Origin: Nitrospirota bacterium
GTDB taxonomy: Bacteria > Nitrospirota > Nitrospiria > Nitrospirales > Nitrospiraceae
Reading direction: 5' to 3'
Assembly: GCA_963703955.1 (NCBI GenBank)
Contig: CAVPGK010000005.1
Coordinates: 15,911-79,910 of the forward strand
Length of the DNA stretch: 64,000 nucleotides
Every line of letters starts with the position of its first letter. Positions within the stretch are counted from its first letter, which is position 1. This document shows, one piece after another, positions 57,001 to 64,000 of the stretch. A program made the position numbers.

Positions 57001-60000
57001 ATTCTGGAAGATGCCGCGGCCAAAGGATAGGCCAAGGGCCGCCTCGAAAGCTCTACTGGCAGAGAGAGCGGACGGTCGATGAAATTTTGGGATGCTCGGA
57101 TCGAAAAACCCAGCCGGATGCTCAAAAAGGTCATTCAACGAGGCCGCAGGAAGTTTGGATGGCGAGGCGTACAGTCGAGTACGTTGAGGCGTCCGAACGA
57201 CCGAGAACGAAGTTGATGGCGTTTTTCAGCATCCGGCCTAACTGCGAATCTTCGCCCAGGCCTGCTGGTACTCTTCGAAGGAATCCACTTCCATCCACCC
57301 TTTGAAGATGGGGACGCAGTTGACGGTGTGGCCGGTGTCGATGAGCTCTTGGATCAGGTCGGTGAAGGAGGCGCGACTGACGGCGCCTGCCTCCTGAAAG
57401 CCTTTTGACTCGTATGTTTTGAGCGCGTTGCGGTAGGCCTGTTTGAAGAGTTCGATGCCCCTCTCGGAGAACATCGCCATCCCGATGAACTCGCCGTGCG
57501 CCTCGCCGTGCGGCAGGTGCTGTCCGATTCTGAGGACGCGGTTTTGCTCATCCGGCATCACGTAGCGAAACAGGTAGCTCTTGCCCGGCGGGTCTTGCAA
57601 TGCGACCAGATCAGGATTGATGTGCGCGTGGGTCTTCGCGGCGTGCTGTTGCTGATCGTACCAGGCGAGGTCCACCACCAATGTGATATCCGCCGGACTC
57701 TTGAGCAGCTTCTCCAGGACGGCGGTCTCGAAGATGATGTCTCCATACAACAGGACGCACCGCCCCTTCATTTCGTTCTCGGCGCAAAATAACGAGAACA
57801 GCTCGCCGGTCTCTTCGTAGCGATCGTTATCGTAATAACGGATATTCGGCAGCGTGATCGCGTCCTTTTTATAGCCGCGTACCAGGGCAATGTCCTTGAT
57901 GTTGCACTCATTCAACGCCGAGACCTGACGCTCGAGAATCGTTTTCCCTTTGATATCCAACAGGCACTTGGGCTTGTCCTCGATGAGCGGCAACAACTGC
58001 TTTTCAAAGCCCGCGGCGGCGATGATCGCGGTCAGCTTCTCACCGCCGACGGGCAGAAACCGGCGCTCGTCTTCTTCCATCTGTGGAACGCCGACCAGGT
58101 CGTAGACTTCTTTCAACTTCACGATCCGATCGTTCACCGAGCCCGGGCGGGTATCCTGCTTGATCACGTCCAGCGCGTCGCGCATAGCTTTGATGCCCGC
58201 GCGAATCGCCTGATTTGCGTAAATGACGATCTTGAAGCCCGCCTCTTCGAGTTCGGCGGCAGTGACGCCGTCGAAAATCGTCGGCACCACGACGAGCGGG
58301 ACGGGGCCGGACCAGGCCTTGGCCACCGCTTTGAGTTCATCGAACGTAGGGGATTTGGAATGGATCAGCACCGCATCCGCGCCGGCGCCGGCATAGGCTT
58401 CGGCCCGCGTGAGGGCCTCTTCCTGTCCCCAGCCGGCGATCAACGCTTCCGTCCGGGCGATGACCATGAAGTCGGGCACCGTCTGCGCGGCTTTGGCCGC
58501 CTGGATTTTTCCGCAGTGCTCTTCGATTGAGATCAATTCCCGCCGAACCCCCGCGTAGAAGCTGCATCGCTTGGGAAACACGTTATCTTCGATGCAGATG
58601 GCGGCGACGCCGGCGCGTTCCCGGTCGGTGACCGTGCGCATCACGTTGAGCGCGTTCCCGTAACCAGTATCGCAGTCGGCGATGATGGGAATGGTCACCG
58701 CTTCGGCCATGTTCCGTTCCACTTCGAGTTGCTCGGTGGGCGTGATGAAACTGGCATCGGGAATGCACTTCAGTGCGGCAGAAATGCCGAACCCGCTGGC
58801 CCAGACGGCATCGAAGCCTGCTTGCTGGATGAGTTTGGCGCTGAGCGCGTCGTGAGCGCCGACGGCTTTGATAATGCCTGGACGCCGAAGGAGTTCTCTT
58901 AATTTCGTGGCGTTGTGCATCGCGCGTCACTATGCGAAAGAGGTTGTTAGGTTGTCAATAAGAATTGCTCCCCTGGCCGCTGAAAAAGACTCCCTGACTG
59001 ATCTGAAAATAGCAGCCTGCGGGATTCAGTAGGCGTTGTCGGGATACGTGTCCAAAAAGCGAGGAGACAGCGTGCGGCTATCGAACGAAACGAACCCACG
59101 TTCGCCTTGAGATTGGTAGGTCAGGTTGATTTCCGTATCCGTGCCGCGCCAATTGTATTGTTGATTCAGGCCCCGAACCATCTGGCCAGGCAACCGTTCG
59201 ATGGTCCCGTAGTGCGATTCGAGGTAGGGCAGGATTCGATCATGGTTGGCTTTGCCTCGATAACGAATGATGACCCTGGCGAATTGATCGTCAATCGTCA
59301 TAAACCGCATCATTTCCACATCTACCTCCGCAAACGACAACCGGCCATCCTTGTGATCGTAGCCTTTGATGGCTCCTGCGGAATCCGCCAGTGCCATGTC
59401 CTGCCGGTCTGCTAACGAGGAGCCCCAGGGTATGCCGAGGAAACCTTTGGGGTCATCCTGCAATGTGATAACGGCAGAGGCTGAGGTCTCGGCTAGTAGG
59501 ACAATGGCGACACCAAGCCAGAGTAAGCGGGCTGACACACGCACGTCATTGAAGATCCGGGTTCGCTGGTGAACGGATGGCTTCATTCCGGCGGTCCGAA
59601 CGAGTGCGCACAGTACCACGATTGCCCGGTGAGGGCAACTATTTCACCCACCAAGACGCTATTTCACGCGCCGCTTCACTCTCCTTTTTCTAGCGCACCG
59701 GGACGCGCCTTTTTCCCATGGCGCAAGCCTGCCAAGACAGGCTCTTTTTCGCTCTCATCCATTATCTCACCCACCCGCCCTAGGCGCGCCGAGACGCGCC
59801 TTCTTCCCATGGCCCGAGCTGGCCAAGACCAGCTCTTCATTATTGTATTGCACCCGCCCACCCCAAGCGCGCCGAGACGCGCTCCTTCCCGTGGGGACGC
59901 GACTTTTCGTGTGTCGGACTCCTTGTGAATCTACCTCTCGGTCGCTATAATGCGGCGCGCAACGCGCAGTTGAGGGCGTAAGGTTTGAGTCCAGAGGTTG

Positions 60001-63000: not shown

Positions 63001-64000
63001 CCGAGGTCGGATTCAAAAACAGCCGTCAAAGGAACGGCCGCGACCGTGCTCAACACCGCTGTGATCGTCGCGTCGGGACCGATCTTCGGTGAGGTGCCGG
63101 CTTCTGTCCAAGCCAGCGGGAACGTTCGCCCGCTCGGCGCGCTCACCCGGGTCGCAGGTCTATCTCTCTTTCAGCGCACGGTCTTGACGCTCCAGCGAGC
63201 CGGGATGACTCGGCTGTTCGTCCTTGCGGATCAGGACGAAGGCGCCCTTCGGCGAGGTCTGAGCGAAGATCATCGCGTCACGGCGCTCGTGCGCTGGATT
63301 CCTGTCCGGGAATTTCCGCCCCGGGATATTCGAACCTGGGAAGCGTTGGCTGCGGATATCCAGGGGGTATGTTTGGTGGTAGGTGTGCACGCCGTCTTTT
63401 CGCCTGGCCTCGTTGAAGACCTCCGACGCGAGGCACAGGATGGGCGCTCCCTATTGGCGGTGACCTACCCTTCGGAGATCCGGACGCGTTCCCAAGTTTT
63501 CGCGGATATGCTCGTGCTACCCGTCAGTCTGCTAAGCGGTTCCGGGAGATAACCCGCCGGCAACGATGCCGGACGAGCACCCGCTGCGCATGATCATGAC
63601 GCAGGCGTCGGCGAGCGGGCGTCTTCGAACGATTGTCACGGCGACGGAAAGCTCCGGTTGGTACCGGCCGGTTCACGAGGCTGCCGATGTGAGAGAGGCC
63701 GAGCGCCTCTCTTTCAGTCGCTCAAAGACGAGCAGGAGGGGTTCGTCGATACCTATTTCAATCGGAAGGTATCGGGTGCCCTGACCCGTCTCTTTGTGCG
63801 CCTGAGGTGGTCGCCGAACGTGATCACGGTTCTCTCCATCCTCATCGGTCTCGCCGCTGCGGCGTCCTTTTCGTTAGGAACCTATGTCACAGGGGTGATG
63901 GGTGCGCTGTTGTTCCAACTGTCGGCCATCGTGGATTGTTGCGACGGCGAACTGGCCCGATTGACCTTCCGCGAGTCACGGTTCGGCGAGCAATTGGATG

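Follow-up and report, generated by a model that had tools for sequence, protein, structure and literature searches.

A PEP mutase homologue with a variant active-site loop beside a predicted phosphonolipid operon in Nitrospirales

Genome mining for phosphonates, and attempts to estimate how many organisms make them, rely on the active-site motif EDKx5NS to recognize PEP mutase (Ppm/PepM, EC 5.4.2.9) (PMC8942020, PMC6697681, PMC12723261, 10.1101/2020.11.04.368217). In the window, a stretch of 64,000 nucleotides of a Nitrospirota genome, the mutase-like protein near the contig end has the loop EDNVFPKRCS, in which two of the five motif residues differ. Is this protein, hereafter the KRCS form, a PEP mutase, and which pathway would it serve? 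The protein is very probably a true PEP mutase. The whole reading, in which this motif-breaking enzyme acts as PEP mutase and supplies an AEP/CMP-AEP lipid pathway, we put at a probability of about 0.8. It is strongly supported by the exclusion between the KRCS form and canonical PepM, by the operon position in other phyla and by the active-site residues.

All the genes named in the initial annotation were recovered by ORF reading and Pfam/NCBIfam searches: the mutase fusion with its EDNVFPKRCS loop, the split decarboxylase, the aminotransferase, the nucleotidyltransferase and the CDP-alcohol phosphotransferase (Table 1). The mutase had been counted as an operon member, which it is not: its gene diverges from the decarboxylase operon, lying 1.1 kb from ppdA across an unrelated ORF, and in most of the family f2 and f3 loci read the two are unlinked. 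It is the single PF13714 match in the source genome (82% complete). The CDP-alcohol phosphotransferase gene is present but not intact, being cut by the contig end and carrying two compensating frameshifts, near 63547 and near 63708 (tblastn, frame translations). Both are probably assembly errors, since at 63547 a related contig shows a 4-base difference and split frames were found in 3 of 41 control genes of the source assembly. Homologues of the intervening 197-aa ORF adjoin the operon in one to three copies in family f1 and adjoin the mutase in some f2 genomes (synteny). Neither Pfam, NCBIfam nor Atlas assigned this ORF to a family, its Atlas neighbors being unnamed Nitrospirota clusters.

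Table 1 Features of the mutase and decarboxylase locus (window positions).
Feature	Position	Strand	Evidence
KRCS-loop PEP mutase fusion (putative), 560 aa	57238..58920	-	PF13714 6.3e-57 + PF12804; nearest solved structure 5UNC
Active-site loop E111-D-N-V-F-P-K-R-C119-S120	58561..58590	-	Alignments and pattern match
Nitrospirota hypothetical protein, 197 aa, hydrophobic N-terminus	59026..59619	-	No Pfam/NCBIfam match; synteny
Split phosphonopyruvate-type decarboxylase, alpha subunit (ppdA)	60006..60503	+	TPP_enzyme_N; TIGR03297 129.7 and TIGR03845 114.4 bits, both below cut-off
Split decarboxylase, beta subunit	60500..61078	+	TPP_enzyme_C; TIGR03846 197 and TIGR03297 178.7 bits, both below cut-off
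2-aminoethylphosphonate aminotransferase (AEPT), class-V	61158..62273	+	TIGR03301 352.5 bits (cut-off 360.8)
Stand-alone PntC-like cytidylyltransferase, GVGKR-x8-PK	62270..62995	+	Best PDB match 6PD1 (PntC domain), with LicC ranked lower
CDP-alcohol phosphotransferase, extra N-terminal domain	62992..64000, off contig end	+	PF01066; tblastn against intact orthologues

The loop fails the EDKx5NS motif because N113 and C119 occupy, in the alignment, the positions of K116 and N122 of canonical PepM (Mytilus numbering). The Mg ligands D55, D82, D84 and E111 are retained (D58, D85, D87 and E114 in PMC7916636), as are the phosphoryl-contact residues R156, H187 and S120 (R159, H190 and S123 in the same source), with N122 as the exception. 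K117 and V-P-T are likewise shared with PEP mutases. Most authors credit Asn122 with the difference between mutase and hydrolase, which the review itself doubts (PMC7916636). Among 269 aligned domains, including 108 KRCS, 110 canonical and 16 lyases, the KRCS and canonical mutases had in common W40, D55, D82, R156, E158, H187, V-P-T and A-N; lyases departed from them at W40, E158, H187, V-P and A-N. His187 was kept in 107/108 KRCS domains and R-x-E in 108/108, together with V-P-T, as in the canonical ones, whereas lyases had Glu (14/16), Asp (16/16) and mostly Asn-Met at these positions. Nine KRCS rows had Asn instead of Asp at D84. Position 44 was Phe in 104/108 KRCS domains, as in phosphonopyruvate hydrolase (PPH), and Leu in 102/110 canonical domains.

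With the mutase model TIGR02320 the KRCS protein scored 282.7 bits, below the cut-off of 319.55; the motif-bearing protein from locus L049 also fell short (306.8), and the canonical one from L055 passed (385.6). The models of the isocitrate/methylisocitrate lyase and CPEP mutase group, TIGR02317 (199 against 354) and TIGR02319 (160 against 420), stayed below their cut-offs. The AlphaFold model (pLDDT 95.5) matched best the PEP mutase of Streptomyces platensis (5UNC; TM 0.98, Z 43.2, rmsd 0.9 Å, 52% identity). The Mytilus edulis enzyme (1PYM/1M1B) had a Z score of 40.9 for 1PYM, PPH 39.4 and lyases 36 or less. This predicted fold in common with 5UNC is no demonstration of function. EDNx[FY]PKRCSF was kept in all 120 top homologues, which were chosen by similarity, and the named homologues of the 560-aa protein were from Nitrospiraceae/Nitrospirales. 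The codons for the loop Cys were TGC (132) and TGT (18).

A PF12804 domain is fused to the mutase domain, an arrangement seen in roughly one Ppm in three (PMC6697681). This MobA-like NTP_transf_3 domain reads AAGFEKQ...PK and is without the GXG(T/S)R signature (PMC6697681), which is also absent from the 20/20 non-Nitrospirales fusions printed and from 114/114 parsed close homologues (6 of 120 were unparsed). We therefore doubt that the fused domain is an active PntC.

For the decarboxylase, sulfopyruvate decarboxylases had been given as the best hits. This held for the beta subunit, which scored higher with TIGR03846 than with TIGR03297, and not for the alpha subunit, where TIGR03297 came ahead of TIGR03845 (Table 1). 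The cut-offs of TIGR03846 (221.5) and TIGR03845 (147.95) were not reached, nor was that of TIGR03297 (312.5), even with the two halves summed (308.4). The beta subunit was 41% identical to ComE and 37–39% to Ppd, and its top matches in plasmid records were comE. By sequence, the decarboxylase is inseparable from ComDE. The five best PDB sequences for the aminotransferase were AEP transaminases or PntC-AEPT.

We infer all chemical steps of the pathway from family membership and context; gene content, conservation, active-site residues and distribution are what was observed directly. The KRCS mutase (EDNx[FY]PKRCS subfamily) would convert PEP to phosphonopyruvate, which the split TPP enzyme would turn into phosphonoacetaldehyde, the decarboxylation pulling the unfavorable mutase step. 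AEPT would yield 2-aminoethylphosphonate (AEP) and PntC CMP-AEP, from which the CDP-alcohol phosphotransferase would place AEP onto a membrane lipid alcohol. An LPG_synthase_TM/HpnL-like membrane protein, encoded in the loci of 24 relatives at a place that in the source lies beyond the contig end, probably moves or transfers the AEP product. 

The gene set agrees with the “Group 1 phosphonolipid” or “Burkholderiales_CDP-OH” clusters, whose product was predicted and never characterized (PMC8942020, citing Yu et al. 2013). Shared are the Ppm-PntC fusion, Ppd, AEPT, a second PntC and two phospholipid genes (PMC8942020), the HpnL-like gene being seen in relatives only. The locus differs from these clusters in its KRCS mutase, its split decarboxylase, the divergent or unlinked mutase gene and the extra Nitrospirota ORF. 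The 2OG-Fe(II) oxygenase, one of the seven core genes of Group 1, was not found within 57238–64000, where the contig ends; it lies beside ppdA in the family f3 locus L042, and in L049 and L228 it is next to the canonical mutase.

We searched 201 Nitrospirales genomes for these genes. The trait is near-core in the order, as the initial annotation had it: the decarboxylase beta subunit was found in 195 genomes (194 at E<1e-60), PntC in 185 and a KRCS or canonical mutase in 188, with neither form in 13. The KRCS pattern occurred in 54 genomes and 21/33 genera, a count that is not circular, since the identical 54 genomes have a homologue at an identity of at least 61%. The loops read for the initial annotation were all EDNVFPKRCS; over the 54 genomes, Y replaces F in 25 and one reads EDS. 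The canonical pattern EDKxxxKxNS was present in 136 genomes (138 matches minus the chance matches G163 and G134), and a protein search of 71 genomes with a canonical query agreed. Only two genomes (G011, G154) had both forms, against ~36 expected if they were independent, which kin are not. Genus g2 was split between the forms (13 + 29, thus 42/42 genomes) with zero overlap. Two enzymes with the same role would be expected to show such exclusion.

In 9/9 loci of family f1, the KRCS gene stood in one fixed slot, flanked by the operon and by a TetR/RND cassette, and in the six canonical f1 operon loci the same slot was without a mutase. The canonical fusion lay amid unrelated, variable neighbors, with its own decarboxylase in 4/20 loci. 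Given the fixed f1 slot and a tree that follows the families, we regard the KRCS gene as the likely resident form in Nitrospirales. On a decarboxylase+AEPT tree (30 rows) KRCS and canonical genomes alternate, which points to replacement or differential loss several times. The canonical PepM fusion, at scattered sites, appears to have replaced the KRCS gene in most Nitrospirales genomes. One clade (G027, G187, G133, G117; rated 100% complete) keeps intact ppdAB and AEPT at 69–82% identity and lacks the mutase, PntC and CDP-alcohol transferase. Their joint loss links the mutase with the lipid branch, and the first operon genes can evidently persist without the mutase. No ComA, cysteate synthase or phosphonatase that would account for the retained ppdAB and AEPT was found in G027, G133 or G117. 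In G175 (95% complete) the whole operon was present and the mutase missing, possibly due to an assembly gap.

The range of the variant, initially described as a Nitrospirales clade, was understated. A GTDB scan with the pattern EDxx[FY]PKRCSF gave at least 120 matches, and among those listed the KRCS form occurred in at least eight phyla other than Nitrospirota. Genomic context was scored in 80 listed loci with flanks (28 Nitrospirales, one chance match and 51 others), leaving out 40 flankless loci (L172–L211). L099 (Bacteroidota), with the pattern outside a mutase, was dropped, and L136, titled Nitrospinota, was counted with Nitrospirales (mutase domain 75% identical). The 51 outside loci among the matches listed came from Planctomycetota (11), Actinomycetota (9), Myxococcota (8), Acidobacteriota (8) and Binatota (8), with single loci from Omnitrophota, Thermodesulfobacteriota and Verrucomicrobiota and four without a phylum label, one of them an archaeon. 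In 33 of these 51 (31 scored by script, plus L114 and L158, which the script had misscored) the decarboxylase followed directly downstream on the same strand, starting within 400 bases, and was itself often followed by AEPT and PntC. The KRCS gene is thus linked to a phosphonopyruvate-consuming enzyme both in the source genome and in these loci. The decarboxylase lay within 6 kb in five further loci; five were cut by contig ends and eight were orphans, of which all five tested had a ppdAB(-AEPT) operon elsewhere in the genome. A CDP-alcohol transferase was confirmed in the outside loci L092 and L101, and Actinomycetota loci carried PF01467 and LicD genes.

The canonical motif was found in a mutase in none of 50 outside KRCS genomes, some of which may be incomplete (L112 was left out; the pattern matches only loops with K at the sixth position); two pattern matches lay in non-mutases. 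Cultured strains with only the KRCS form were Sorangium cellulosum So ce56 and Minicystis rosea DSM 24000. Phage records gave only distant matches, and plasmid records nothing above 60% identity.

A query-biased sample of 136 aligned representatives comprised 84 canonical, 15 KRCS, 2 near-KRCS, 4 lyases, 1 PPH-type and 30 with other motif-breaking loops. The latter include EDNxxPKRNS. A 100-row tree used random subsets of the “other” and canonical representatives; a 53-row tree omitted all “other” loops together with P0187, L103, P0123, P0121, L229 and P0265 and sampled the remainder. Trees built without the loop columns invariably placed KRCS on the side of the mutases with respect to the lyase branch. 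Most KRCS rows were sister to the canonical group in one tree, and in two trees the canonical mutases were nested inside a KRCS grade. The best tree, with KRCS-centered sampling, had the canonical mutases (100/98) inside the KRCS grade, and KRCS formed one clade in 0% of bootstrap trees; a KRCS clade was not rejected by the AU test (p=0.141). A far-reaching scenario, which we hold to be rather improbable, would make KRCS an old multi-phylum PEP mutase lineage that keeps the lid Cys of lyase ancestors and later gave rise to canonical EDKx5NS mutases and PPH. The Cys, at the position from which Asn122 contacts the migrating phosphoryl group, would then be catalytic, possibly through a phospho-cysteine instead of free metaphosphate.

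Against the whole reading stand the changed Asn122, the PPH-like Phe44, the missed TIGR02320 cut-off, the beta subunit resembling ComE and the mutase-less clade. The first two would also suit a phosphonopyruvate hydrolase or another C-P cleaving enzyme, with the operon using imported phosphonate. The KRCS protein shares with the Variovorax hydrolase (2DUA) the fold and 45% identity, and TIGR02321 was its second-best model (259.9 bits, cut-off 374.4). Such a function is nevertheless very unlikely, as the hydrolase signature is absent (RCS instead of the DTS loop with Thr at the Asn122 position; Lys188 instead of Arg188, IHSKS versus IHSRQ) and the single PPH-type row (P0163) fell inside the canonical clade, on a branch separate from KRCS. 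The context is biosynthetic: a hydrolase encoded first in a decarboxylase operon would use up the decarboxylase's substrate, KRCS replaces canonical PepM genome by genome, and a phosphonatase scored over cut-off in 0/5 genomes. Likewise very unlikely is that the operon serves to make a sulfonate, taurine, from sulfopyruvate via sulfoacetaldehyde, with the KRCS protein in some other lyase-like job. The comE matches and the retention of ppdAB and AEPT by the mutase-less clade speak for it, as does K-R-C, found at the same lid-loop position in the methylisocitrate lyase/CPEP mutase group (KRCG loop). PDB titles include a C123S mutant of E. coli PrpB. Cys123 is the catalytic acid of that enzyme. 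Lyase residues are absent from KRCS proteins, however: these have Ser-Phe after the Cys and not the K[RK]CG loop, His187 where lyases have Glu (the His190 position), V-P-T instead of the Asn-Met strand, and about 30% identity. ComA was found in 0/5 genomes and cysteate synthase over cut-off in 0/5; AEP enzymes are the nearest relatives of both the aminotransferase and the nucleotidyltransferase, and nearly all the genomes with canonical PepM have the same operon.

A further alternative leaves the mutase and AEP steps standing and concerns the acceptor, which could be a hopanoid or another non-glycerolipid instead of diacylglycerol. KRCS genes adjoin HpnJ/HpnI (L104, L132) or HpnK (L096), in relatives the CDP-alcohol transferase is followed by a gene scoring 167 bits with TIGR03476 HpnL, and HpnA occurs near the operon in L076 and at 39517–40500 of the window. 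The transferase itself, however, is a PF01066 enzyme with phospholipid synthases as its best named models, and most Myxococcota, Planctomycetota and Actinomycetota operons examined had no hopanoid neighbor. We consider this acceptor unlikely.

Returning to the mutase of an AEP lipid pathway, the order-wide trait is less novel than had been stated. Although the initial annotation listed no paper on it, phosphonate clusters reportedly reach their highest abundance in Nitrospirae (PMC7298704), a sludge study reported them from every one of its Nitrospira MAGs (PMC9765116), pepM was reported in lake Nitrospirota (PMC10734540), and the cluster type is also published. The KRCS form is real and conserved across phyla, very probably a variant of PEP mutase within a known kind of pathway. 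We found no description of a KRCS or EDN-type mutase loop in the literature searched, mainly main texts outside most subscription journals; the supplements of PMC6697681 and PMC8942020 could list such proteins. The claim that motif-based surveys miss the variant applies to strict EDKx5NS filters; KO/HMM annotation probably catches the gene, as close homologues carry the JGI product name “phosphoenolpyruvate phosphomutase”. Rice et al. discarded 22/905 fusions for want of the motif. A relaxed rule accepts proteins that lack two of the motif residues when their gene adjoins a TIGR03297 gene (10.1101/2020.11.04.368217), and would still miss KRCS where the decarboxylase is split, as it is here with scores below the TIGR03297 cut-off.

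If KRCS is a mutase, the EDKx5NS filter drops 52 of the 201 sampled Nitrospirales, as well as producers in Myxococcota, Planctomycetota, Acidobacteriota, Binatota and Actinomycetota. Such a natural replacement of Asn by Cys, at a residue believed to decide between mutase and hydrolase chemistry, would also be a direct probe of the debated mechanism. A source on myxobacteria states that no phosphonate was isolated from this group (PMC10435759). The genome paper of Minicystis rosea lists one phosphonate cluster (PMC8436480); since this genome is without the canonical pattern, the listed cluster is probably the KRCS locus.

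Motif-breaking loops other than that of the KRCS mutases (EDNx[FY]PKRCS) were found in 30 of the 136 aligned PepM-like representatives, a sample biased toward the query. These loops, all from representatives among P0121–P0270, included EDNxxPKRNS, EDSxxPKVNS, EDAxxPKRNS and further ones, and outside the loop the 30 proteins had mutase-type residues. Within Nitrospirales, a third mutase type, 5UNC-like and with the loop EDKLFPKVNS, was encoded at two loci (L049 in genome G068, L228 in G065), with a 2OG-Fe(II) oxygenase/HalD-like gene and PntC downstream. A fourth, PF01467-fused type (L229, G147) accompanied the usual canonical copy. 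In one clade of four near-complete genomes (G027, G187, G133 and G117; loci L072, L073, L074 and L075, respectively), ppdAB and AEPT were intact, but through gene loss no mutase, PntC or CDP-alcohol transferase was left.

In the fused nucleotidyltransferase domain, the GXG(T/S)R signature was absent from the KRCS fusions checked and from the canonical Nitrospirales fusions printed. Despite this, the PK lysine was retained in the same proteins. The domain may serve in nucleotide binding or regulation, and not in catalysis.

Two proteins recurred in L042, L109 and L162 (Binatota and Nitrospirales family f3), one a toroid protein resembling squalene-hopene cyclase and the other a small protein of Rieske type; their genes adjoined the KRCS gene or lay within the operon. 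In the window, the short dispersed repeats of the two intergenic regions comprised a 54-nt direct pair and 22-nt inverted arms, and were matched by many unrelated contigs as well. A CDGSH iron-sulfur ORF and two adjacent ORFs appeared frameshifted, consistent with indel errors in the assembly.

Features in the window
Feature	Position	Strand	Remark
HpnA-like hopanoid-associated epimerase	39517–40500	-	~17 kb from mutase
Apparently frameshifted ORFs	54695–56413
Short dispersed repeats	57113–57237 and 59693–59882		both intergenic
Fused nucleotidyltransferase domain	57238–58050
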